From Promethearchaeota archaeon (lineage in GTDB: Archaea > Asgardarchaeota > Lokiarchaeia > Sigyniarchaeales > SOKP01): a stretch of DNA of 64,000 nucleotides. This document shows positions 29,871-46,441 of the stretch, piece by piece. The DNA is taken from assembly GCA_048938895.1 (NCBI GenBank), contig JBHLLU010000003.1:1-64000 (forward strand), written 5' to 3'. The notes under the pieces were generated by a model, which saw nothing but the letters and a program-made list of their open reading frames with translations, was not told the origin of the DNA and searched no databases. Every line of letters starts with the position of its first letter. Positions within the stretch are counted from its first letter, which is position 1. The position numbers were made by a program, and so were the translations under genes.

Positions 29871-30902
29871 ATGAGTTTGCTTAAATATATAATTAGAAGA
29901 TTAATTATAATGATCCCTGTTCTTTTTGGAGTGTTAACCCTAACCTTCATCCTTTCCAGATTGATGCCAGGAGATCCGATTGCGGCACGATTAGCTGCTC
30001 AAGGAATTCGAAATCCATCTGCGGAGCTTTATACTCAAATGAAATGCCAACTGGGTTTATGTGATCCAATAATAGTTCAATATTTTAGATATATGGGAGA
30101 GTTGTTTACAGGACATTGGGGTAAATCAGTGTCGATTGTAAGAAATCAACCTGTCTGGGATCTTATAATGGATAGAATGCCTTTAACTATTGATCTTACC
30201 ATATTTTCATTAACAATAGCATCCTATTTCGGGATTAAAGCTGGAGTAATTTCAGCTACTCATAGGAATAAAACACCTGATACATTTGTAAGAGGGTTTG
30301 CTTTAGTAGGAGTAGCACTACCAGTTTTCTTCTTAGGGATGCTACTACAGTTCCTTCTAGGATATCAATTAAATTGGTTTGAACCTACAGGATATTTGAG
30401 CTCAAAATACCAAGATCCTGAATATACAACTGGTTTTATTATTATTGACGCATTACTATCAGGCGAGTGGTATCTCATTGGAGACTATTTATGGCATTTG
30501 GTACTTCCCGTCTTCTGTCTATCATTCATTATGCTTGCTTCAATTACACGACAAACACGTTCAAGTATGTTGGAGGTGTTAGAACAAGATTTCGTTAGAA
30601 CTGCCAGAGCAAAAGGTTGTAAAGAAAAGTCAGTAATACATTCCCACGCTTTAAGAAATGCTATGATTCCGACTGTTACCATAATAGGAATGAGTATTGC
30701 AGGATTATTGGGAGGCGCCGTTCTAACTGAAACCACATTTGGGCTAACTGGGATGGGAAAATTGTTTGTTGATGCAATATTGTTATATGATTACTGGGTG
30801 TTATCCGCATTGGTCTTTATGATTACAATCTTGTTTATCTCAGCAAATTTACTAACTGATGTAATTTATGCTGTTCTCGATCCAAGAATTAGATATTCAT
30901 AA
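29871..30902 (+). CDS. dppB: Peptide/nickel ABC transporter permease DppB/OppB, copy 1
   Basis: YIIRRL, MPGDP, TRSSMLEVLEQDFVRTARAKG, DPRIRY. Confidence 0.93.
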   Translation: MSLLKYIIRRLIIMIPVLFGVLTLTFILSRLMPGDPIAARLAAQGIRNPSAELYTQMKCQLGLCDPIIVQYFRYMGELFTGHWGKSVSIVRNQPVWDLIMDRMPLTIDLTIFSLTIASYFGIKAGVISATHRNKTPDTFVRGFALVGVALPVFFLGMLLQFLLGYQLNWFEPTGYLSSKYQDPEYTTGFIIIDALLSGEWYLIGDYLWHLVLPVFCLSFIMLASITRQTRSSMLEVLEQDFVRTARAKGCKEKSVIHSHALRNAMIPTVTIIGMSIAGLLGGAVLTETTFGLTGMGKLFVDAILLYDYWVLSALVFMITILFISANLLTDVIYAVLDPRIRYS

Positions 30903-31183
30903 TTGAATTATGAATTTCTGCACCCACTTTATTTGTTAAAGAGAAGATGTCAAAATATCTTGAAAAGTAGGAAAAATATAACTATTTAAGAGACATTTAA
31001 CAAGATTTATATTAAAACGAGCGGTTGTGTATGTAATTGCATTTTGATTGAACAAGAAATGTAATTAAATGTGAGAGTAAAATTGATATAAAACAATTAT
31101 TCTTGAAATCTAGAATTGCACTAAGGAAACTACTATTATTTACTATTAATTAACAATATTAAATATGAAAAGTTTTGTAATAT

Positions 31184-32215
31184 ATGAGCCTAATTAAATA
31201 CATAATCCGGAGATTAGTGGTAATGATCCCTGTATTATTTGGGGTTCTAACCTTAACTTTCATTCTTTCTAGAATGATGCCGGGAGATCCTATTGCAGCG
31301 CGATTAGCAGCTTCGGGAGTACGTAATCCTTCAAACGCGCTCTATCATCAAATGAAATGTCAACTAGGATTATGTGACCCTATATTCGTCCAGTATTTAC
31401 GATATATGGGAGAATTATTTACAGGTCATTGGGGTGTCTCAGTTTCAATAGTTCGGAATGAACCGGTGTGGGATCTTGTTATGGAGAGATTACCTTTAAC
31501 CATAGATCTTACTGTCTTTTCAATGGCAATTTCCTCTTATTTGGGAATAAAAGCAGGAATTATATCAGCAAAGCATCGAAATAATTCTCCTGATACTATC
31601 GTACGAGGAATTGCATTAGTGGGTGTTGCTTTACCGGTATTCTTTTTAGGAATGCTTCTTCAATTCACATTTGGGTATGTATTTAAGATTTTCGAACCAA
31701 CAGGACATTTAAGAGCTAAATACCAGGATCCTCCCTATCTGACAGGTTTTGTTTTAATTGATTCGCTTATGTCAGGTCATTGGTATTTGATTGGGGATTA
31801 TTTATGGCATTTAACCCTACCTGTCTTTTGTTTATCATTTATTACCCTTGCTTCTATTACAAGGCAAACAAGATCAAGCATGCTGGAAGTGTTAGAGCAG
31901 GATTTCGTAAGAACTGCACGTGCTAAAGGGTGCAAAGAAAAAGCAGTAATACATTCCCATGCGTTAAGAAATGCACTGATACCGACAGTAACAATAATCG
32001 GATTAAATATTGCAGGTTTACTTGGAGGAGCGGTTATTACTGAAACGACTTTTGGATTAAATGGGGTAGGTAAATTATTTATTGATGCTATACTATTGTA
32101 TGATTATTGGGTGTTAGCAGCGTTGGTATTTCTTATAACCATTATCTTCATTATTGCAAATCTAATGACGGATGTAATCTATGCAATTTTAGATCCAAGA
32201 ATAAGATATTCCTAG
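31184..32215 (+). CDS. dppB: Peptide/nickel ABC transporter permease DppB/OppB, copy 2
   Basis: Same motifs and same length (343 aa) as copy 1. Confidence 0.93.
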   Translation: MSLIKYIIRRLVVMIPVLFGVLTLTFILSRMMPGDPIAARLAASGVRNPSNALYHQMKCQLGLCDPIFVQYLRYMGELFTGHWGVSVSIVRNEPVWDLVMERLPLTIDLTVFSMAISSYLGIKAGIISAKHRNNSPDTIVRGIALVGVALPVFFLGMLLQFTFGYVFKIFEPTGHLRAKYQDPPYLTGFVLIDSLMSGHWYLIGDYLWHLTLPVFCLSFITLASITRQTRSSMLEVLEQDFVRTARAKGCKEKAVIHSHALRNALIPTVTIIGLNIAGLLGGAVITETTFGLNGVGKLFIDAILLYDYWVLAALVFLITIIFIIANLMTDVIYAILDPRIRYS

Positions 32216-35864: not shown

Positions 35865-37700
35865 TCATTTTTCATAACTCCCAAATTGAGGAATTTTCTT
35901 AAGTTGATCTGAATTAAAAATTGGCCCATCTTTACAAATAGAAATATCATTATTCTCACCAACACAACAGGACCCACATAAACCAACACCACATTTCATT
36001 TTTCTCTCGAGGGAAGCTTGAATTTGAATATTCTTTGACTCCGCTAAATCTAATACTTTTTTCATCATTACCTCTGGACCACATGTGATAATTAAATCAA
36101 TTTTGCTATTAATTATAAGATCCTCAATTGTGTCTGTTACATAACATTTTCTTCCAAATGAGCCATCGTCGGTAGAACACATGGTGTTTGGGAGAAGTTC
36201 TATTAACCTATCAGCAAAAATTAAAGAAGCTTGGTCTTTAGCGCCTATAGTTACTATTACATTCTTTTTATTTTGTTTTAATGGTTCAATTAATGACGTT
36301 AAAGCAGCAATTCCCATTCCTCCTCCAACAATTAGAATGTTTGATGCATCTTCATAATTCCATGTATTGCCAAAGGGTCCTCTGATGCCAATTTTTTCAC
36401 CTACGTTAAGTTCAAATAATCTGGCTGTACCATCACCAATTTTTTGGACAGTAATTTCGACAAGATTGCCCTCTATGTTTGAAATAGACATAGGTAAAAA
36501 ATCTGTGTCGGGAAGCCATAATATCACAAACATACCTGGTCTATATACTTTTGCAATTCTTTCACTCCGAATTTGAAAACTTCTAATTTCTGGTGAATGT
36601 TTGACAATTGATTCAATTTTTACCATGTCTGTTTTATGTCTTGTTAGATCTAGTACTAAATCCTTACTTTCATTTAAAAGATTTTTAGTCTCAAGAAAAC
36701 CTTTTTCCACACAAATATCAACTATTTCCTTTCCTCTTTTATTTCTAATAATCAGAGTTTTCCATTCATTCTCACTTCCGATATTTCCAACTGATATATC
36801 AGCAAATTCTGCAGTATAATCCGAACATGAAAAGCAAGCGTTTCGAATTGATTTATCATATATATAATTTAATGGTAAATCTTTAACACTAGAGTTTGTA
36901 AATATTTTTAATTTAAATTCGCTTTTATTTGAGTCAAATTTAATAATATCATTAGGATTTACACTAAAATCCTTAAAACATTGATTCAATAATTGGTTAT
37001 AATAAGTCCCAAAGCAAAACGTACCTATTGCCAGTGAAACTAAATCATATGCCTCAAAATCAAAAATAGGATGATTTTGGAGTTTTCTTAATGCTTGGAT
37101 CTGGCATGGGGTGCCCACGACGGCACTACTCGTATATTCCTTATTAATTGCTTCTCCTAATAATGATAATGTTGGGCTTTGGCTTGGTTTATATCCCACC
37201 CCACGAAATAATTCTTTTTGATTTGATGCCATTATAGGATAGGGTATAAAGTTTTCATCTTTATCTGTAATTATGGCACAATCAATTAATTCCTCTTCCA
37301 TTGCCGTATATAATAATGTAGTAATTGGTCCTGCTTCAATAGAGAGTTGTTCTTTTGCCTTATCAGTTAATCTTACAGATATTATTTCCAGGTAATGCCC
37401 CAATATTTTCTCATACTCCTTCCCAAAAACCCATTTATCTAGTAGATCTACAGGGATTTGATCGATTCCTGTTTTTGGGCAAAGATTATAACATAGTCCA
37501 AATCCATCTCTACATGTATTACTGTCTTTGCAGGAACCATCCTCTATTGGAATTTCTTTTGACTTATCAAATTTGATATTAGCACAAAAAGCAGCACATG
37601 CTCCGCAATATACACATTTCCCTGTTCTAATTATTTCTGATTCTAATTCCTTCCAGCCTTTTTTGATTTTATGAATATACATATCTTTAATTACCCCCAT
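35865..37700 (-). CDS. Fusion of an F420 hydrogenase/dehydrogenase beta subunit (FrhB/FpoF-like, with ferredoxin) and a PyrK/HydG-like FAD/NAD(P)/[2Fe-2S] subunit
   Basis: N-terminal CVYCGAC..C, VGTPCQ, IGTFC, CFSCSD, ADISVGNIGS; C-terminal PMSIS, GIRGPFG, VGGGMGIA, TDDGS, CGPE, ERKMKCGVGLCGSC...CKDGP. Confidence 0.88.
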   Translation of the reverse strand: MGVIKDMYIHKIKKGWKELESEIIRTGKCVYCGACAAFCANIKFDKSKEIPIEDGSCKDSNTCRDGFGLCYNLCPKTGIDQIPVDLLDKWVFGKEYEKILGHYLEIISVRLTDKAKEQLSIEAGPITTLLYTAMEEELIDCAIITDKDENFIPYPIMASNQKELFRGVGYKPSQSPTLSLLGEAINKEYTSSAVVGTPCQIQALRKLQNHPIFDFEAYDLVSLAIGTFCFGTYYNQLLNQCFKDFSVNPNDIIKFDSNKSEFKLKIFTNSSVKDLPLNYIYDKSIRNACFSCSDYTAEFADISVGNIGSENEWKTLIIRNKRGKEIVDICVEKGFLETKNLLNESKDLVLDLTRHKTDMVKIESIVKHSPEIRSFQIRSERIAKVYRPGMFVILWLPDTDFLPMSISNIEGNLVEITVQKIGDGTARLFELNVGEKIGIRGPFGNTWNYEDASNILIVGGGMGIAALTSLIEPLKQNKKNVIVTIGAKDQASLIFADRLIELLPNTMCSTDDGSFGRKCYVTDTIEDLIINSKIDLIITCGPEVMMKKVLDLAESKNIQIQASLERKMKCGVGLCGSCCVGENNDISICKDGPIFNSDQLKKIPQFGSYEK

Positions 37701-38283
37701 TTAGCTTTTTTAAGAAATCTAGTGCTTCTTTTTTTCCAAGTTCAAAAGCTTCCATATTTTTTTTGAGTGTGGCGCTAGGCACAAATTTTTTCAGAGTTTC
37801 AATTGCAGATTCTTCTGATATTATTCTTGAAAGAATGGTGAACGCTCCAAATAAAATTGAATTTCCAAACACAATATTTCCAAAATTTTCAACGGCTAAT
37901 TTCTGAACAGGGATACTTAAAGATTTTTTTATCTGTTGTGCTATTTTAAATTCCTGGATCGTAGATGGATCCCAGATAAGATATCCTGTATTTTCCTCAG
38001 CTTTAAATTGATCAGGACCAACTCGTGCTGCTGATTCCCCAGAAAGTACAATCAAAAAATCATATGGTTTTAGAGCTTGAGGATAATCAATAGATTTTAT
38101 ATCTTTATCCAACTCCACAACCACTTCTGCCCAACACGCACCACCTCGAGCAGAAGCGCTATATGCTTCCGTTTGGGTAGCAGCTAAGTTTTCATAAAGT
38201 GATGCAGCAGTAATAATCATTTTTGATAATGTAATTACTCCCTGTCCACCAAATCCCGCAATACGTATTTCATATCTAGCCAA
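37687..38283 (-). CDS. 2-oxoacid:ferredoxin oxidoreductase gamma subunit
   Basis: IRIAGFGGQG, YSASARGG, NSILFGA, NMEAFELG. Confidence 0.92.
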   Translation of the reverse strand: MARYEIRIAGFGGQGVITLSKMIITAASLYENLAATQTEAYSASARGGACWAEVVVELDKDIKSIDYPQALKPYDFLIVLSGESAARVGPDQFKAEENTGYLIWDPSTIQEFKIAQQIKKSLSIPVQKLAVENFGNIVFGNSILFGAFTILSRIISEESAIETLKKFVPSATLKKNMEAFELGKKEALDFLKKLNGGN

Positions 38284-38286
38284 TCT

Positions 38287-39192
38287 TTATTCCTCTCCCA
38301 TAGCTATTTGCTTTATTTTTTCATATTCTTCACAATATTCTGGTTTATTAGGTTCATATCTGAATTCTCCGATGACATATTTATTTAGCAATTCTTCTTC
38401 AGTCATGAATTTTGCTTGGTTAATACGTACACTATTTCTTTTTATCCAATCAATCATTATACCTGTATTATCCATTTTCTGTCCTTTTATACCTAAATTT
38501 TCAGCACCTAAACTATCGAGATTTTTTCTTCCAAAATACGTAATACAAGGAGTTATTATCTCTATTACAGAAGTACCTTTATGATTTAATCCCTTCTTAA
38601 AATATTTCATTAATGTCCTTGGGTGAGCAACTGTTGTTCTGGCAACATAAGAAGCACCTGCAGTGAGTGCAAGTTTTACCCCATCGGTTCTATTTTCAAA
38701 CATTTTATAAGGTGTTGTTGAACTCATTGCACCAAATAAAGTTGTGGGTGCCCCTTGTCCTCCTGTCATGGCATAAATACTATTATTGAAAATAAGAATT
38801 ACACAATCAAGATTTCTTCGGCAAATATGCATAAAATGATTTCCTCCGATTCCTAAACAATCACCATCTCCAGTAAAAATAATAGGTTTCATTTTTGGGT
38901 TTGCCATTTTCATTCCTGTTGCTAGTGCTGGTGCGCGCCCATGTAATGTAAGTATTCTCTGAGTAGCATGGTGTAAAGTCAATAAAATCTGACCATAGCA
39001 TCCAATGCCAATTACTACCGGATATAGTTTAGGATCTAATTTTTCATCTTCAAAAACACGATTGAAAAGGTGACCTATAATTCCATATCCACATCCCGCG
39101 CAGAAAAGAGAGAAGTATCTCTTGAAATATTTTCCTGGCATCGAAATAGAGAGGTATGGATGCTCTGGTTGTTCACTTGGATATGTCGACAT
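38287..39192 (-). CDS. 2-oxoacid:ferredoxin oxidoreductase beta subunit (TPP-binding)
   Basis: FCAGCG, GIGC, LHGRA, GDGD...NNSIYAMTGGQ. Confidence 0.93.
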   Translation of the reverse strand: MSTYPSEQPEHPYLSISMPGKYFKRYFSLFCAGCGYGIIGHLFNRVFEDEKLDPKLYPVVIGIGCYGQILLTLHHATQRILTLHGRAPALATGMKMANPKMKPIIFTGDGDCLGIGGNHFMHICRRNLDCVILIFNNSIYAMTGGQGAPTTLFGAMSSTTPYKMFENRTDGVKLALTAGASYVARTTVAHPRTLMKYFKKGLNHKGTSVIEIITPCITYFGRKNLDSLGAENLGIKGQKMDNTGIMIDWIKRNSVRINQAKFMTEEELLNKYVIGEFRYEPNKPEYCEEYEKIKQIAMGEE

Positions 39193-40364
39193 TATTTTGC
39201 CACCTCCCTTATTACTTTTAAAATATCATCTGGATGATGAAAATCGCATATTTTAGGAATTTTTATTATAGGAATTTCTAATTTTGTTACTCGTTCGACT
39301 TGTTCTGCTATTATCCCAGTATAATTCAATTCAGGTACAATTACGGCTTTCGCGTTTTTTACGACATTCTTTACTTTTTCATCTGGAAATGGCCATAAAG
39401 TTATTAGCCGAAAAATCCCAACTTTAATTCCTTCCTTGCGTGCGATATCAACAGCACGATAACTAGTTCTAATTGGTAAGCCATATGAGATAATAATTAT
39501 TTCCGCATCCTCCATTTTATATTCTTCAGTCAGAGAAATTTTATCTAAATTAGTCTTTAGTTTATCAGTTAGCATCTTTGTGAAGGGAAGTGCCTGTCCC
39601 CTAGAGGACATTCCATTAGAACTATGTGGTTGATGAAGGAACATTAATGGTACATAATCAGTGCCCATAATTGGTGGTTTTGGGATTATGTATGAGTTTG
39701 TTTTATTATCAAAATATGAAAATTTATTTGTGAAATCACTAGGTAATTCACGAGAAATTACTCTCTCGATAATTTCCTCTTTTGGCGGTATAACCAATGG
39801 TTCATGAAGATGGCCTAAATACGCATCTGATACAAGAAAAACGGGACAGCGATACATCTCAGCAAAATTAAATGCTGTGATTGTTAAATCAAAAAGCTCT
39901 TGACAATTCATTGGGGCAAGTGCTATAACCCCAAATTCTCCATTACCTGCAAATCTCATTAAACCTAAATCATTATGATGAGGTTCGGTTACAAATCCAG
40001 TACCAGGACCATTTCTTTGAACATCACAAAACACAAAAGGGATTTCCAAGCAAGCTGCCATACTAATAGTTTCCACCATCAAAGAAAATCCGGGGCCTGA
40101 TGTTGCTGTCATTGATTTTGCTCCCACTAAAGATGCGCCCATTACTGCATTTATTGACGCCAATTCATCTTCCATCTGCATACAAACTCCTCCAACTTGA
40201 GGCATCCTAAATGCTAAATGCTCAATAACCTCTGTACTAGGTGTAATTGGATATCCCCCAAAAAAGTTAAGGCCTGCAGATAAAGCACCTTCTGCCATAG
40301 CAACATTACCCATCATAACATGCTTTCCTTCTGGTAAATATCTTTTATTATTTTTATCTCCCAT
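39192..40364 (-). CDS. 2-oxoacid:ferredoxin oxidoreductase alpha subunit (KorA-like)
   Basis: GYPITPSTE, QMEDE, TATSGPGFSL, LWPFP. Confidence 0.93.
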   Translation of the reverse strand: MGDKNNKRYLPEGKHVMMGNVAMAEGALSAGLNFFGGYPITPSTEVIEHLAFRMPQVGGVCMQMEDELASINAVMGASLVGAKSMTATSGPGFSLMVETISMAACLEIPFVFCDVQRNGPGTGFVTEPHHNDLGLMRFAGNGEFGVIALAPMNCQELFDLTITAFNFAEMYRCPVFLVSDAYLGHLHEPLVIPPKEEIIERVISRELPSDFTNKFSYFDNKTNSYIIPKPPIMGTDYVPLMFLHQPHSSNGMSSRGQALPFTKMLTDKLKTNLDKISLTEEYKMEDAEIIIISYGLPIRTSYRAVDIARKEGIKVGIFRLITLWPFPDEKVKNVVKNAKAVIVPELNYTGIIAEQVERVTKLEIPIIKIPKICDFHHPDDILKVIREVAK

Positions 40365-40377
40365 TCATCTCGCCTTC

Positions 40378-40641
40378 CTAGGTTTTAGCTTTCTCATTAC
40401 TTCTTTCTTTTTCGTCTAATACATAAATGCACCAATCAGGACATGCAAATTCACACCTTCTACATCCAGTGCAGTACTTTTCTTTACCTTCTACAACTTT
40501 AGGAACATAAGCAATCCTATAATTTAATTCTTCACTGAGTTCTAAGATCCCAGTTGGACATACTGCAATACAAGCTCTACATCCACCGCATCTACCTTTG
40601 TTTAAAAATAATGAGAATTTCTTTTCCTTATTTTCGATCAA
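40378..40641 (-). CDS. 2-oxoacid:ferredoxin oxidoreductase delta subunit (2x[4Fe-4S])
   Basis: CGGCRACIAVCP and CTGCRRCEFACPD. Confidence 0.9.
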   Translation of the reverse strand: MIENKEKKFSLFLNKGRCGGCRACIAVCPTGILELSEELNYRIAYVPKVVEGKEKYCTGCRRCEFACPDWCIYVLDEKERSNEKAKT

Positions 40642-41569: not shown

Positions 41570-42082
41570 TCATTTAAGTTCTTCCAATAAATATCGGTCT
41601 AAGCCACCGATTTTAAGGAGATTTAAAAGTATTGGATGAATTTCAACTCCTTTAAACTTTTTTCCGGTAAACAAATTAATAACTTCCGCCTTGGGAATGT
41701 TAATTTCGATTTCTTCACCTGTCTTGAATTGCTTTGAGACATTTTCAACCTCTAATACAGTAAGAGCACGAGCAAATGAAGAACGATAAAAAATCCTAGC
41801 AAATGATTCAGCAACAATAGCTAAAATCCCTTTTTGCTGTAATATAGATGGAGCTGTTTCTCTACTTGAACCGCATCCAAAATTTTTACCTGCTACAATA
41901 ATATCACCATCTTTCACTTTACTTGGAAATTCCTTATATATTGTTTCACAGGTGTGTTCTGACATTTCTTTTGGATTATCTATATATTTGCTAGGGGAAA
42001 TAACATCTGTATCAACATTATCAGGAAAAACCCATATCTTTCCTCTTATAATATCTCTATATTCCTTATCCCTCTTTGTAAT
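41570..42082 (-). CDS. leuD: 3-isopropylmalate dehydratase/homoaconitase small subunit; probable ATT start upstream of the track ORF
   Basis: The extended frame gives the family N-terminal motif GKIWVFPDNVDTDVISP, then NFGCGSSRE and SFARIFYR. ATT at 42082 lies 7 nt after GAGGTG. Confidence 0.9.
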   Translation of the reverse strand: MTKRDKEYRDIIRGKIWVFPDNVDTDVISPSKYIDNPKEMSEHTCETIYKEFPSKVKDGDIIVAGKNFGCGSSRETAPSILQQKGILAIVAESFARIFYRSSFARALTVLEVENVSKQFKTGEEIEINIPKAEVINLFTGKKFKGVEIHPILLNLLKIGGLDRYLLEELK

Positions 42083-42095
42083 TTTTTTCCACCTC

Positions 42096-43364
42096 TTAAA
42101 AATTTCGTGGGTCTGTTATTTTCCCTTTTATTGCTGATGCTGCTACGGTTGCTGGTGATCCCAGATAAATTTTTGAATTAATACTACCCATTCTACCTTG
42201 AAAATTCCTATTTGAGCTAGATATACATGTTTCACCTGGTGCAAGAAGCCCTCCATGACCTCCAAAACAAGCTCCACAGCTGGGATTTGTGATTATCGCA
42301 CCAGCGTTTAAAAAAACTTCAAAGATTCCCTCAGTTGCTGCTTTCAACCATACGGTTTTTGAAGCTGGTGTAATTATCATGCGAACATCCTTGTGAATTT
42401 TCTTTCCTTCCAAAATATTTGCTGCTACCTTTAAATCTTCATATCTCCCATTTGTACAAGATCCTAAGAATGCTTGGTTGATGTTAATACCTTCTACTTC
42501 AGTAACGGGTTTAACATTATCAATGGTATGCGGGCAAGAAATTTGAGGTTCTAATTCATCAACATCCATTTCATAGATTTTTTCATATATGGCATCCTCA
42601 TCAGGTTTCACTAAATTGAATGACTTTTTTGTTCTTTTTCTAACCCAATCGATAAGTTTTTGGTCAGGAACTCCAAAGGCAAACTTTGCACCTAATTCCA
42701 AAGCAAAATTAGACATTGTCATTCTAGAGGAAATACTTAAATCTTCCATGGCATTTCCTGTAAATTCAATAGATTTGTAATTCGCAACTTCAGCAGTGTA
42801 ATCTCCGGCAATTTTTATAATTATATCTTTGCTCATTATGTTGTTAGAGAGCTTACCAGAAATGTTAAATTTTATAGTATGGGGTACTTTAAACCATAAT
42901 TTTCCTTTCACATATGCATAAAAAAGATCAGTATTTCCAACACCACAACTTGCTGCATTAAAAGCTCCATATGTCGTTGTATGACTGTCACCACCAATAA
43001 TTAGCATACCTGGTCTAATGTGACCCTTCTCTGGTAATACTTGGTGGCAAACACCCTCTTTTATGTCATAAAAATGTGTTATTCCTTGTTTTTTAACAAA
43101 ATTTCGAATCATATCATGGACTGTCGCCCATCTTTCAGTTGGGGCAGGATTATAATGATCGAATAACACTACAATTTTATTTGGATCAAATACTTTTCTC
43201 TTTTCGGAGGGTTTTATTTTATTAAAATCTAAAGAAACCTTTGCAGTACCAAAATGACTCATTATAAGGTCGATTCTGGCATTTATTATATTTCCTGGTT
43301 TAACTTCATATTCAGAAATATTATGAACCGAAAGAATCTTTTCTGCAATAGTTTTTCCATCCAT
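42096..43364 (-). CDS. leuC: 3-isopropylmalate dehydratase/homoaconitase large subunit
   Basis: GVCHQ, DSHTTTYGA, GSCTNGR, CGACFG, NRNFQGRMG. Confidence 0.93.
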   Translation of the reverse strand: MDGKTIAEKILSVHNISEYEVKPGNIINARIDLIMSHFGTAKVSLDFNKIKPSEKRKVFDPNKIVVLFDHYNPAPTERWATVHDMIRNFVKKQGITHFYDIKEGVCHQVLPEKGHIRPGMLIIGGDSHTTTYGAFNAASCGVGNTDLFYAYVKGKLWFKVPHTIKFNISGKLSNNIMSKDIIIKIAGDYTAEVANYKSIEFTGNAMEDLSISSRMTMSNFALELGAKFAFGVPDQKLIDWVRKRTKKSFNLVKPDEDAIYEKIYEMDVDELEPQISCPHTIDNVKPVTEVEGININQAFLGSCTNGRYEDLKVAANILEGKKIHKDVRMIITPASKTVWLKAATEGIFEVFLNAGAIITNPSCGACFGGHGGLLAPGETCISSSNRNFQGRMGSINSKIYLGSPATVAASAIKGKITDPRNF

Positions 43365-43438
43365 TTAATAACATCAGTATGAATTTTTGTATATAAATAA
43401 TAGAAAGGGTAAAAATTTGAAGAATAAAGCATACCCAT

Positions 43439-44863
43439 TTAAAGATATGCTAATGCAATGTTATCTAACTGCTTTTGGAGTGATGAATCAATAGGTTTTA
43501 GAGAAGGTTTATTAAGTAATCTAATTGCTTCTTCTCTTGCTCTCTTTCTGGATGACTTTGATCCGTTTTTCTTCCATGTTTCCCGAGTCATTCTATCTAT
43601 AATTTGACTAGGAAGAAATAATTCTTTTCTAAAATATTTCAAAGTTAAAGGATGCGATAACAATTCTTCTTTATCTTCATAATCTTTCAAAATTTCTGAA
43701 GCAAATGGTTTCCCATAATCTTCAATACCGCGAATCAATCTTTTAACCATACCTGCAATTTCATTGTCGGTGATAAGTTTCTCAATACTTTGAGTAGATT
43801 CAAAATCAAGCATTCCGGGACCAGAAATCATATTAATTCCAGCAAGACCCGCAAGCAGTGCCCCCATTCCTGCCTCAAAACCCGCTTGTCCATCAGGAAT
43901 TTTGGAATCGCTTAAACTCATATAGGCATGAGTAGGCAAGTTCAAAAACTTACCCATTTCAACATCTCCAAGATTAATCATCATGGTTTCAATCGCGCCC
44001 ATCGGTGTAGTACCATGTTTCATATCGAATACAGCAGGGGAACCACCCCAAATTAATGGAGCACCTTTATTAGTTGATTGAACAATCACAACTCCTGCAA
44101 GGCACTCGGCACAATGTTGGGTAATTGACCCTATTAAAGTAATAGGAGCACTGGCTCCTGATAAAGGCATTGAGACAAATTCCGAAGGAATCATGCTTTT
44201 AGCAGCATCTATCAATGATTGGGTTGTTAGATCAGACCATTTTAATGGAGGACTAGGACAAGCATCAAATATTGCTAACGGTTTCCGAGCTAAATCATCT
44301 TCAGAATTTCTACATACTAATAAAATTTCTTTCATAATTGAAAAGCTTTCTTTTCTAAATGTTCCCGTTACTACAGGTTTAAAACAATTCGATAATGCTA
44401 AATATAAACGATGCCAATCCTGTGCATCATTAGGAACGTCTTGATAGATCAGAGCAGTACTTTGGGCTTCAATATACTTCAATTGCTCAACGATCTTGGA
44501 AAATCTAATGAAGTCATTAGATTGTCCCTCTCTTAGTTGTCCTGTACTTTCATCGAGTATGAAAATAGCAGCTGACCCAGGATCGTAATGAACTTGATCC
44601 TCTGTTAAAGTTATATGTTCTTCCCCTTCTCTATCAAATAGCGTAATCTTATTAGGGGTTGAATTCAAAGCTTTATCAATCAAATCTGATGGGATAAAAT
44701 ACCTTGAACCATCATGGTTCAACCCCATCTTTTCAAACATATCAATTGCTTCTTGATTTTCAATAAATATTCCTTGGGTTTCTAAAATTGTTTTTGCTTC
44801 CTCTAAAATGAGTTTTTTATGTTCAATATCTAAAATACTAATCTTTGGTCTAATTATTGTCAT
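43439..44863 (-). CDS. MttB-superfamily (trimethylamine methyltransferase-like) corrinoid methyltransferase, non-pyrrolysine
   Basis: SPPLKW, GASAPITLIG, AECLAG, DSKIPDGQAGFE, GMLDFE, DNEI; uninterrupted ORF with no in-frame TAG. Confidence 0.9.
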   Translation of the reverse strand: MTIIRPKISILDIEHKKLILEEAKTILETQGIFIENQEAIDMFEKMGLNHDGSRYFIPSDLIDKALNSTPNKITLFDREGEEHITLTEDQVHYDPGSAAIFILDESTGQLREGQSNDFIRFSKIVEQLKYIEAQSTALIYQDVPNDAQDWHRLYLALSNCFKPVVTGTFRKESFSIMKEILLVCRNSEDDLARKPLAIFDACPSPPLKWSDLTTQSLIDAAKSMIPSEFVSMPLSGASAPITLIGSITQHCAECLAGVVIVQSTNKGAPLIWGGSPAVFDMKHGTTPMGAIETMMINLGDVEMGKFLNLPTHAYMSLSDSKIPDGQAGFEAGMGALLAGLAGINMISGPGMLDFESTQSIEKLITDNEIAGMVKRLIRGIEDYGKPFASEILKDYEDKEELLSHPLTLKYFRKELFLPSQIIDRMTRETWKKNGSKSSRKRAREEAIRLLNKPSLKPIDSSLQKQLDNIALAYL

Positions 44864-44885
44864 AATTTATCCTTTATCTTGAAAT

Positions 44886-45764
44886 TTAAATTAAATCTAT
44901 AATTTTTTTAATTTCCCTTATTGTATCAGGTGATGTACCGCAGCAACCACCAACTACTTTTACTCCTAATTTAATCATTTTCTTTATATCATTTACAAAT
45001 TCTTGAATAGGTTGTTCATAAAAAGTTTTGGTTCCTTCTATTCTTGGTTTCCCTGCATTAGGTTTTATGGATATTGGTAAATCTGTAAGTTCTACTGCTT
45101 CTTTTACCAAATCAAGCATATCATTTGATCCAATAGTACAATTTGCTCCTATCACATCAACATTTTCATTTTCTAATGTATGAATACATTTTTCTAAAGG
45201 ATCACCCATAATTGTAAAAAAACCTCTTTTAGTCTTTTTATATGTAATTGAAGCAATAATAGGTTTCGTTGATACTTCTTTTACAGCATGGACTGCAGCA
45301 AGCATTTCTTCTAAATCTGAAATTGTCTCAATATGAAATAAATCAACTCCCTTGTCTAAAAGTTCGGTTTGTATTTTAAAACTTGAAAACCATTCATCAC
45401 GTGTAATTTTTCCTACAGGGGGTCTAAACTCTCCAGTTGGCCCAATATCACCAACAATTAAACGTTCTGGAGGGCAAGCTTTTTGAATATTCTCTAATGC
45501 TTTTTCAATTATAGTATCGATTTTATGTTCAAGGTTATGATTTCTCAGATTTAATGGAGTTGATCCAAATGTATTTGATTGACACATATCTGAACCAGCA
45601 TTATAATAAGATTTATGGATATTAAAAATTGTATCTGGTTTTTCTATATTCAATATGTCTGGTACTTTACCTGGCTCTAATCCCCGTTTAATCAGTTCAG
45701 TCCCCATTGCCCCATCAAAAAGTATTATTTTTGATTCATCTTTCAACCAATCATGAAATGACAT
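44886..45764 (-). CDS. Stand-alone homocysteine S-methyltransferase domain (MetH N-terminal/BHMT fold)
   Basis: FDGAMGTEL, NTFG, GDIGPTG, GANC, PNAG, GGCCGT (Zn ligands). Confidence 0.92.
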   Translation of the reverse strand: MSFHDWLKDESKIILFDGAMGTELIKRGLEPGKVPDILNIEKPDTIFNIHKSYYNAGSDMCQSNTFGSTPLNLRNHNLEHKIDTIIEKALENIQKACPPERLIVGDIGPTGEFRPPVGKITRDEWFSSFKIQTELLDKGVDLFHIETISDLEEMLAAVHAVKEVSTKPIIASITYKKTKRGFFTIMGDPLEKCIHTLENENVDVIGANCTIGSNDMLDLVKEAVELTDLPISIKPNAGKPRIEGTKTFYEQPIQEFVNDIKKMIKLGVKVVGGCCGTSPDTIREIKKIIDLI

Positions 45765-45793
45765 TTTTTCAATTACCTCCTATAAATTAAGCT

Positions 45794-46441
45794 TTATTTG
45801 TTAAGTAGAGAGGTAACTAATCTTACCGCATCAATAGCATTTTCAGCGAACCCATCAGCATTACATTCCTTAACCCATGAACCAGTCACTGGAGCACCAC
45901 CAAGAATTACTTTAAACTTATCCAATAAATTGCGTTCCTTTAGAATTTCGATAATTCTTTTTTGTCCAAACATAGTAGTTGTCAGAAGTGCAGAAACACC
46001 AATTATATCTGCATTTTTTTCTATAGCTACATCCACAATTTTCTCGGCTGGAACATCAGTACCTAAATCATATACTTCATACCCATACGCTCTTAACATA
46101 GTAGCGACTATAGTTTTCCCTATGGAGTGAATATCTCCTTCTATCGTTGCCATGACTATAGTACCACGCGAAATTTCTTCAGATCCCTTTTTTAAGTGGG
46201 GAATTATTAAATCTAAGCTTTTTTGCATAACCTCTGCACCCTTCATTAATTCTGGAAGAAAAAATTCTCCTTCTTCCCATAATTCTCCAACTTTACGAAT
46301 TCCAGTTGCAAATCCTTTTTCAATGACATCCATTAAATCCATATCTTCAGAAATAGCTCTCTTTGCGAGATCTATCGCTTTTTCTTCATCTAAATCAACA
46401 ATAGAATCAACCATTTCTTTAAAAATATCTTCTTGAGACAT
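45794..46441 (-). CDS. Corrinoid (B12-binding) protein of the MttC/MtbC family
   Basis: FLPEL cap domain, GDIHSIGK, SALLTTT, GGAP. Confidence 0.93.
   Translation of the reverse strand: MSQEDIFKEMVDSIVDLDEEKAIDLAKRAISEDMDLMDVIEKGFATGIRKVGELWEEGEFFLPELMKGAEVMQKSLDLIIPHLKKGSEEISRGTIVMATIEGDIHSIGKTIVATMLRAYGYEVYDLGTDVPAEKIVDVAIEKNADIIGVSALLTTTMFGQKRIIEILKERNLLDKFKVILGGAPVTGSWVKECNADGFAENAIDAVRLVTSLLNK

Follow-up and report, generated by a model that had tools for sequence, protein, structure and literature searches.

An FrhB–PyrK fusion protein as a candidate electron-output subunit of a 2-oxoacid oxidoreductase in a Lokiarchaeia-type archaeon

The DNA analysed here (the window: 64,000 nucleotides, positions 1 to 64,000 of contig JBHLLU010000003.1 in the Promethearchaeota archaeon assembly GCA_048938895.1) carries on its minus strand, at positions 35,865–40,641, a cassette of five genes. 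It was confirmed that the cassette consists of the delta, alpha, beta and gamma genes of a KorDABC-type 2-oxoacid:ferredoxin oxidoreductase (OFOR) and one fused fifth gene, whose product joins a ferredoxin domain, an FrhB-fold domain and a PyrK-type domain. Judging from sequence comparison, we put the probability at roughly 0.5 that the fusion protein is the bound fifth, electron-output subunit of the enzyme, and that the five genes encode a 2-oxoacid (perhaps pyruvate):NAD(P)+ oxidoreductase, where NAD(P)+ denotes nicotinamide adenine dinucleotide (phosphate). In the proposed mechanism, electrons would pass from the thiamine pyrophosphate (TPP) site and the beta cluster to the two delta clusters, and then to the two ferredoxin clusters of the fusion. 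From there they would move over the FrhB [4Fe-4S] cluster, the PyrK [2Fe-2S] cluster and flavin adenine dinucleotide (FAD) to NAD(P)+, so that free ferredoxin would be bypassed by an iron-sulfur wire. The FrhB half would now probably serve mainly as wire and docking scaffold. Since OFOR electrons lie at about −500 mV and NAD(P)+ at about −320 mV, the reaction would be strongly downhill and hence one-way oxidative. NAD+ is favoured over NADP+ as the acceptor because the TDDGS motif of the fusion matches NAD-using PyrK and NfnA.

Gene content of the cassette

The delta gene (40,378–40,641; 87 amino acids, TTG start) encodes a KorD/OorD-like 2x[4Fe-4S] ferredoxin that matches Pfam Fer4 families; its best NCBIfam model is OorD, below the cut-off, and its eight cluster Cys are invariant among 33 aligned deltas. 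The alpha gene (39,192–40,364; 390 amino acids; Pfam POR_N and PFOR_II) has the YPITP motif and scores 395 bits against NCBIfam PRK08659 (cut-off 411), with 1yd7_A and 8ys5_A as the best structures in the PDB. The beta gene (38,287–39,192; 301 amino acids; Pfam TPP_enzyme_C), for the subunit with TPP and a [4Fe-4S] cluster, has its best PDB match in 8ys5_C (OorB) and was also aligned to 5b46_B and 6n2n_B. The gamma gene (37,687–38,283; 198 amino acids; Pfam POR) is best matched by PRK08537, below the cut-off. A Magnetococcus 2-oxoglutarate:ferredoxin oxidoreductase was also among the best structures for the OFOR subunits. Thus, the features of a four-subunit OFOR (a YPITP alpha, a TPP-binding beta, a gamma and a 2x[4Fe-4S] delta) are all present, while all four subunits score under their NCBIfam equivalog cut-offs.

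The fusion gene follows at 35,865–37,682. An earlier reading made from the letters alone (the sequence-only reading) had described tightly packed delta, alpha, beta and gamma genes followed by a fused open reading frame (ORF) of 611 amino acids. The arrangement was found as described, in five minus-strand ORFs. The frame is indeed open for 611 amino acids, from 37,700, but the gene itself more likely begins at the ATG at 37,682 and encodes 605 amino acids, because the collection's own gene call has 605 amino acids and most of the 120 listed homologues have 602–609. Residue numbers below refer to the 605-amino-acid form. With this start, the successive gaps from delta to the fusion are 13, −1, 3 and 4 bases. 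A scan with sigma-70 promoter and terminator models, which are ill-suited to archaea, gave hits at chance level.

Domains and clusters of the fusion protein

Three domains are found in the fusion. One is an N-terminal 2x[4Fe-4S] ferredoxin domain (37,467–37,625; Cys 23, 26, 29, 33, 51, 57, 64 and 68). Another is an FrhB-fold domain (36,648–37,415), in which the [4Fe-4S] ligands Cys 193, 223, 283 and 286 are kept and the FAD/F420 motifs are substituted. The last is a PyrK-type FAD/NAD(P)/[2Fe-2S] domain (35,865–36,629) with Cys 564, 569, 572 and 583 and the motifs GGGxG, TDDGS and CGP. The occurrence of FrhB-like and PyrK-like modules in one chain, as the sequence-only reading held, is borne out by four Pfam families above cut-off in the single ORF (FrhB_FdhB_N, FrhB_FdhB_C, NAD_binding_1 and DHODB_Fe-S_bind). 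The C-terminal half scores 258 bits against the NCBIfam PyrK model NF000796 (cut-off 224), while the N-terminal half reached no FrhB or FpoF cut-off of NCBIfam. In support of a complete electron path, the eight ferredoxin, four FrhB and four [2Fe-2S] Cys are all invariant among 40 aligned fusions. Three [4Fe-4S] clusters, one [2Fe-2S] cluster and one FAD per chain can be predicted with confidence from these residues and the PyrK motifs.

An AlphaFold2 model built from 40 sequences (pLDDT 74.8, pTM 0.74) was compared with known structures using Foldseek. The FrhB half matched 8riu_B (E 3.7e-28) and 8rja_E, with TM scores of 0.78–0.81 of the target, and the position of the ferredoxin domain in the fusion agrees with that in 8riu_B; the FrhB fold together with the four-Cys [4Fe-4S] site identifies an FrhB-type module. 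According to PMC11493965, these two chains are the zeta subunit of the F420-reducing carbon monoxide dehydrogenase/acetyl-CoA decarbonylase/synthase (CODH/ACDS; 8RIU chain B) and the FwdI subunit of the F420-reducing Fwd (8RJA chain E), both of Ca. Ethanoperedens thermophilum; they are bound outlets whose N-terminal ferredoxin domain bridges to the catalytic core. The C-terminal half of the model matched NfnA, PyrK and sulfhydrogenase gamma. Among the PDB chains listed for the model, none carries both modules, and the sole matches in the ESM Atlas were AsrAB-like fusions at 0.75–0.76, a score at the level of a lead.

Conservation of the gene order and co-occurrence

A protein search gave 448 matches among 8000 candidates, and the 120 listed homologues have 68–100% identity at 90–100% coverage and are from Asgard archaea where named. 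An exact-pattern scan of 185,579 species genomes yielded 79 loci, 42 of them with the fusion. The gamma gene lies directly upstream of the fusion in 38 of the 38 loci that have upstream DNA (the other four of the 42 lack it), which favours a subunit of this OFOR. Of these 38, the full delta-alpha-beta-gamma series is present in 28, the series is cut off by a contig edge in 8, and another ORF precedes gamma in 2 (L007 and L018); in L008, a 679-amino-acid ORF lies between beta and gamma. It was also found that gamma is split after codon 43 in L007:677-1301 and L008:5036-7981. The more distant fusions (34–62% identity) have the same gene order in six of six regions, two of which duplicate loci of the 79-locus set; this order, preserved down to 34–41% identity, likewise favours the bound-subunit reading. 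An assembly artefact or a chance fusion is excluded by the 120 homologues of nearly full coverage and by the same gene order in distant loci. The linkage to the OFOR genes, whose lack of conservation would have spoken against the sequence-only reading, is thus conserved.

The fusion orthologue, whole or cut, occurs in 86 of the 154 genomes of its order (families f1, f2 and f4; none of 14 in f3). With the window's protein as the query and three candidates scored per genome (326 weaker matches are unlisted), no orthologue turned up among the remaining 246 of the 400 genomes from the phylum, nor was any fusion found outside the order among the 79 loci. Some records are titled Odin-, Hod-, Thor- or Hermodarchaeota (L007, L008, L016, L018, L020 and L033); their fusions, with 67–80% identity, fall inside the Lokiarchaeia-type clade, and the titles may be loose. 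The beta orthologue was found in 83 of the 154 genomes, the three beta-only matches all being partial. Fusion and beta occur together in 80 genomes and are both missing in 65, as compared with about 46 shared genomes expected if independent, although these counts take in related genomes and hence overstate the association, which supports a functional unit. Fusion and beta are both missing from near-complete genomes within the genus, and the cassette is therefore an accessory unit that comes and goes as a whole.

The synteny and co-occurrence fit co-regulation equally well. They could also come from a separate, co-transcribed ferredoxin:NAD(P)+ oxidoreductase that re-oxidises free ferredoxin without a stable complex and yields the same net reaction, and no longer form fused to gamma or delta was found among the 120 listed of 242 longer matches. 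We regard this explanation as unlikely: a general recycler need not follow one particular OFOR locus of seven, and zeta and FwdI dock on their enzymes via the same N-terminal domain. The docking role proposed for the fusion's N-terminal domain is drawn from those two proteins; it is also argued in PMC11493965 that an acceptor of higher potential exerts a thermodynamic pull.

The PyrK-type half

Since the C-terminal half passes the NCBIfam PyrK cut-off, databases label the protein PyrK, and NCBI and JGI annotate it as a pyrimidine-synthesis subunit, that is, the electron-transfer subunit of dihydroorotate dehydrogenase. Its domain also nests among archaeal PyrK. Nevertheless, this role is extremely improbable. 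The pyrD of the genome (C77:5866-6792) overlaps its own 278-amino-acid pyrK (271 bits); pyrD was found in 0 of 48 fusion loci as against 17 of 31 stand-alone PyrK loci; and the fusion was not found in 68 of the 154 genomes of the order. The sequence-only reading had noted that pyrD is not adjacent, which holds in the window's cassette as in the 48 loci, and had allowed that a distant PyrD might be the partner, which is rejected on the genomic evidence of a separate pyrD-pyrK pair.

In a quick tree, 12 fusion C-terminal halves group in a single clade (SH-aLRT 99) within the archaeal PyrK, from which the domain was likely recruited, whereas NfnA and HydG lie on long outer branches. Of the PyrK/HydG-like character given earlier, the PyrK part therefore stands, and an origin from HydG or NfnA is unsupported. 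Moreover, the position of NfnA's Asp ligand is Cys in the fusion, and the cassette has no NfnB. The other two domains of the PyrK kind in the genome belong to an NfnAB-like pair and a Flx-Hdr-like cluster. The former (C4:34802-38525, L099) is followed directly by an ORF read as glutamate dehydrogenase. The latter (C71:16761-29501, L100) is large: besides HdrABC-MvhD, it includes HydB/HydG-like genes and an FrhB-type subunit, and it has both F420-type and NAD(P)-type inputs.

Substrate of the OFOR and the LutAB-like pair

In PMC5020499, the K49I change in StOFOR1 beta abolishes the 2-oxoglutarate activity and spares the pyruvate activity, and a 2-oxoglutarate-specific KorAB without the residue at position 49 is also mentioned. 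Arg occupies the position of StOFOR Lys49 in OorB and 6n2n_B. The cassette beta has Gln there in 35 of the 35 GIGC motifs read (two of them duplicates; L038 is without the exact motif), and the basic residue of a 2-oxoglutarate:ferredoxin oxidoreductase is thus absent. The genome has ten POR_N matches, and no fusion-type gene was found beside the OFORs at the six other loci read. One of these, C125:67552-73911, is a second KorDABC-type operon without a fusion gene, and the paralogue it encodes is 38% identical and has the canonical Arg in beta; its neighbours were read by inspection of the sequence as fumarase and fumarate reductase, and it is likely the 2-oxoglutarate enzyme of the tricarboxylic acid (TCA) cycle. 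Because this Arg-type paralogue without a fusion adjoins TCA-like genes, the cassette OFOR is a specialised second enzyme, whose substrate is probably not 2-oxoglutarate.

Our best guess is that a LutAB-like 2-hydroxy-acid dehydrogenase supplies the substrate, which would be pyruvate or a 2-oxoacid like it. A LutA/LutB-like pair (CCG; LUD plus Fer4) is found close to delta, on the strand opposite to it, in 11 of the 42 loci, and downstream in one; in the present genome, it is on a contig other than that of the cassette (C105:9117-11155, L152). In family f1, the LutB-like orthologue is found in 70 of 84 cassette genomes as against 5 of 51 others, and within the same genus in 24 of 28 as against 0 of 26. 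Recurring neighbours of the cassette also include a UxaA/SuyAB-like pair, in 8 loci, and, in 3 loci each, serine dehydratase and a decarboxylating dehydrogenase. Several of the recurring neighbour activities yield pyruvate by established pathways, and we take the neighbours as a lead pointing to pyruvate supply. Rather than to the amino-acid fermentation suggested earlier, the co-occurrence points to a 2-hydroxy acid such as lactate.

The flavin pocket of the FrhB-fold domain

According to PMC3591093, FrhB holds the FAD pyrophosphate at a helix start and FAD near the Lys75-Tyr76 loop, and F420 near S209-V210 and the IGKGK turn. These sites were compared between 119 near-full-length fusions (the window's protein included, one shorter homologue excluded) and 59 unfused ferredoxin-FrhB proteins, a control set that is uncharacterised and contains many near-identical members, with two fusion fragments excluded. 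In the fusions, QDGGVVT is replaced by xEAGPIT, AGTKY by xGYKP and CME by CFG, and IGKGK is gone or variable. The counts among the 119 are 113 for G117 to A, 116 for Pro at 119, 118 each for T to Y164 and Y to P166, and 119 for E to G225; the G, T and K of the FAD-side motifs are retained despite these substitutions. Position 300, a small residue by the F420 ring, is N, E, K or D in 108 of the 119, but this test is not strict because 9 of the 59 controls also carry N there. The window's fusion has SNKSE at the IGKGK site and N-I at the S209-V210 site, and thus lacks the F420-side motifs. Six FrhB paralogues of the same genome retain DGG and near-canonical loops. As further observations, the genome has twelve FrhB_FdhB_C matches, three of them of about 500 amino acids, and in an 821-amino-acid ORF (C73:8373-10838), FrhB-like sequence is apparently interrupted by a GltD-like stretch.

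Three states of the pocket were distinguished: near-canonical (L134), changed yet nearly fixed (the main family), and lost (L041, L131, L133, L135 and L036). L134, which retains GGAIT and AGTKW, represents a single genome that is 66% complete; a stretch of N falls in the linker region, and the protein is likely a fusion. Because canonical motifs persist there, the FrhB half likely descends from a zeta/FwdI-type F420-reductase module; the trees, however, are quick ones in which long branches meet, and this affects the branching order of L134 and f4. In family f4 and L036, the FAD/F420 motifs are gone and every cluster Cys is retained, as are the PyrK-half motifs as far out as f4. The f4 proteins have 29–31% identity in the FrhB half, as compared with 44–57% in the ferredoxin domain and 41–47% in the PyrK domain. 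By this measure, the FrhB domain is the fastest-drifting part of the fusion, which would suit a role as a wire, and the retention of its cluster where the pocket is lost suggests that electrons bound for the PyrK half pass through this cluster.

The host encodes cofE, cofD and cofG for F420 biosynthesis and is thus F420-making, a point in support of the sequence-only reading. Furthermore, cofG occurs in 120 of the 154 genomes of the order, including G276, G281 and G282, where the pocket is eroded; the loss of the pocket is thus not explained by F420 supply. The earlier view that the FrhB half works with F420 is weakened by the substitution of the published FAD/F420 motifs in 119 fusions and by their loss in f4 and L036. 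Also proposed earlier was a single-chain F420H2:NAD(P)+ transhydrogenase. With two hydride-carrier folds in one chain, a free-standing enzyme of this kind, whose operon position would be incidental, can be imagined. It is very unlikely, since it leaves unexplained why gain and loss of the gene go together with those of this particular OFOR, and no module is conserved less than the F420 pocket.

Several points weigh against a bound subunit with NAD(P)+ as the sole outlet, besides the relatedness of the genomes counted and the nature of the control set. Passing −500 mV electrons to NAD(P)+ would waste energy in an anaerobe equipped with NfnAB-like and Flx-Hdr-like complexes as well. In the main family, G163, Y164, K165, P166 and Q168 are at 99–100%, where the median column is at 82% (29% of all columns reach 97%), and G118, T121, K165, the DISxG stretch, G302 and W307 are retained. 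Such fixed pocket residues suggest that something is still bound, and FAD and even F420 may still bind there. The zeta subunit reduces F420 although it, too, deviates from the FrhB consensus, with NY in place of KY. Finally, the LutB-like gene was not found in any of the five cassette genomes of f2 and f4 (63–88% complete).

An alternative is a dual outlet, in which the OFOR-bound fusion would have two working flavins: the FrhB half would reduce F420, or the PyrK half NAD(P)+, with inter-flavin transfer as a side activity. The altered pocket is conserved at 95–100% in the 119 fusions, L134 keeps its motifs, the closest structures are F420 reductases, and cofG occurs in 117 of 134 genomes of the family. 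Conversely, the Pro at the pyrophosphate helix start, the change of TKY to YKP and of CME to CFG, and the loss of IGKGK and of the small F420-ring residue all argue against a working F420 site, and the pocket was lost at least twice with the cassette intact. We hold this reading only tentatively. Equally tentative is its wider form, a five-subunit enzyme that would bypass free ferredoxin, would feed the F420 and NAD(P) pools from one chain via a remodelled FrhB site and would be the first F420-reducing OFOR, possibly merging lactate electrons. Of the two-pool router in the sequence-only reading, the electron-routing role stands as a possibility for the main family, and the F420 half is the weakened part.

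A further explanation is confurcation, in which OFOR electrons and those of lactate from the LutAB-like enzyme would be merged on the fusion to reduce NAD+; the two streams would cross at the altered FrhB flavin. The LutB-like gene tracks the cassette, often opposite delta; the Lut-linked family is the very one whose pocket residues are both altered and fixed; and the pocket is gone from f4, in whose genomes the Lut gene was not found. We nevertheless consider it highly improbable. To our knowledge, neither flavin type of the fusion is among the known bifurcating types, no FrhB- or PyrK-type flavin being known to bifurcate; in G276, the Lut gene is present although the pocket is eroded; and the Lut pair of the present genome is on a different contig.

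Neighbouring genes

A LeuC/LeuD-like (homoaconitase family) hydro-lyase pair at 41,570–43,364, on the minus strand, is a loosely linked neighbour. Its LeuC-like orthologue was found in 24 of the 154 genomes, 23 of them with the cassette, and it does not belong to the core cassette because only 23 of the 84 cassette genomes of f1 have it. The listed ATG of the small hydro-lyase subunit is preceded by about 40 further codons of open frame. The upstream region 41,570–46,441, on the cassette strand, holds this pair, an MttB-family methyltransferase, a homocysteine methyltransferase domain and a corrinoid protein; the MttB-corrinoid group recurs in 10 of the 42 loci. Elsewhere in the window, at 29,871–32,215, there are two tandem, closely similar genes for 343-amino-acid permeases of a peptide ATP-binding cassette transporter.

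Implications and comparison with known systems

Metabolic models count every Asgard OFOR as a source of reduced ferredoxin, and the fusion is read as a pyrimidine-synthesis subunit. If the bound-subunit reading is true, a one-way enzyme that passes electrons from 2-oxoacids to NAD(P)+ (or F420) is encoded in over half of the genomes in a large Lokiarchaeia-type order, and the electron and energy balance of these archaea changes. The F420-reductase domain also forms a natural series, intact in L134, remodelled in this genome and lost in f4, with the iron-sulfur wire retained, which is a clean case for testing the re-purposing of redox modules. A soluble acetyl-CoA-forming enzyme that gives NAD(P)H or F420H2 directly would be useful in pathway engineering.

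Each of the modules is known, and their combination is undescribed. The architecture was not found in the literature on FrhB, PyrK and OFOR of Asgard archaea and Lokiarchaea, and no characterised enzyme with it was found there, in agreement with the sequence-only reading; subscription journals and bioRxiv supplements lie outside this coverage. In the available part of an archaeal fusion survey (PMC11237513), none of eight FrhB rows pairs FrhB with a PyrK-type domain, and the fusion is not named.

The OFOR part resembles KorDABC/OorDABC (Helicobacter, 8YS5) and StOFOR (5B46), which are among its best PDB matches, in the delta-alpha-beta-gamma order and the YPITP motif, and differs from them in the Gln for Lys/Arg at beta position 49 and in the fifth gene. 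An OFOR core with a flavoprotein outlet to pyridine nucleotide is also found in the NAD+-dependent phenylglyoxylate dehydrogenase PadEFGHI and in pyruvate:NADP+ oxidoreductase (PNO). Their outlets are a disulfide-reductase-type PadH and a P450-reductase-type domain, respectively; the outlet family of the cassette is different from both, and its OFOR scores far below the NCBIfam Pad cut-offs. The C-terminal half shares the FAD/NAD(P)/[2Fe-2S] plan, the four Cys and the motifs GGGxG, TDDGS and CGP with PyrK of family 1B dihydroorotate dehydrogenase, NfnA and sulfhydrogenase gamma (PDB 1EP1, 5KSW, 4YLF, 5JCA and 9NEZ). Unlike PyrK, it is fused to a ferredoxin-FrhB module and was never beside pyrD in 48 loci; unlike NfnA, it has Cys for the Asp ligand and no NfnB partner. 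The closest likeness is to zeta and FwdI, the best matches in both sequence (E 1.9e-55) and fold: they share the N-terminal 2x[4Fe-4S] domain and the FrhB fold with one [4Fe-4S] cluster, and they too, whether by gene position or by binding, are the outlet of an oxidoreductase that is normally linked to ferredoxin. From these, at about 33% identity, the fusion is distinguished by its OFOR partner, its extra PyrK domain and its substituted or lost FAD/F420 motifs.

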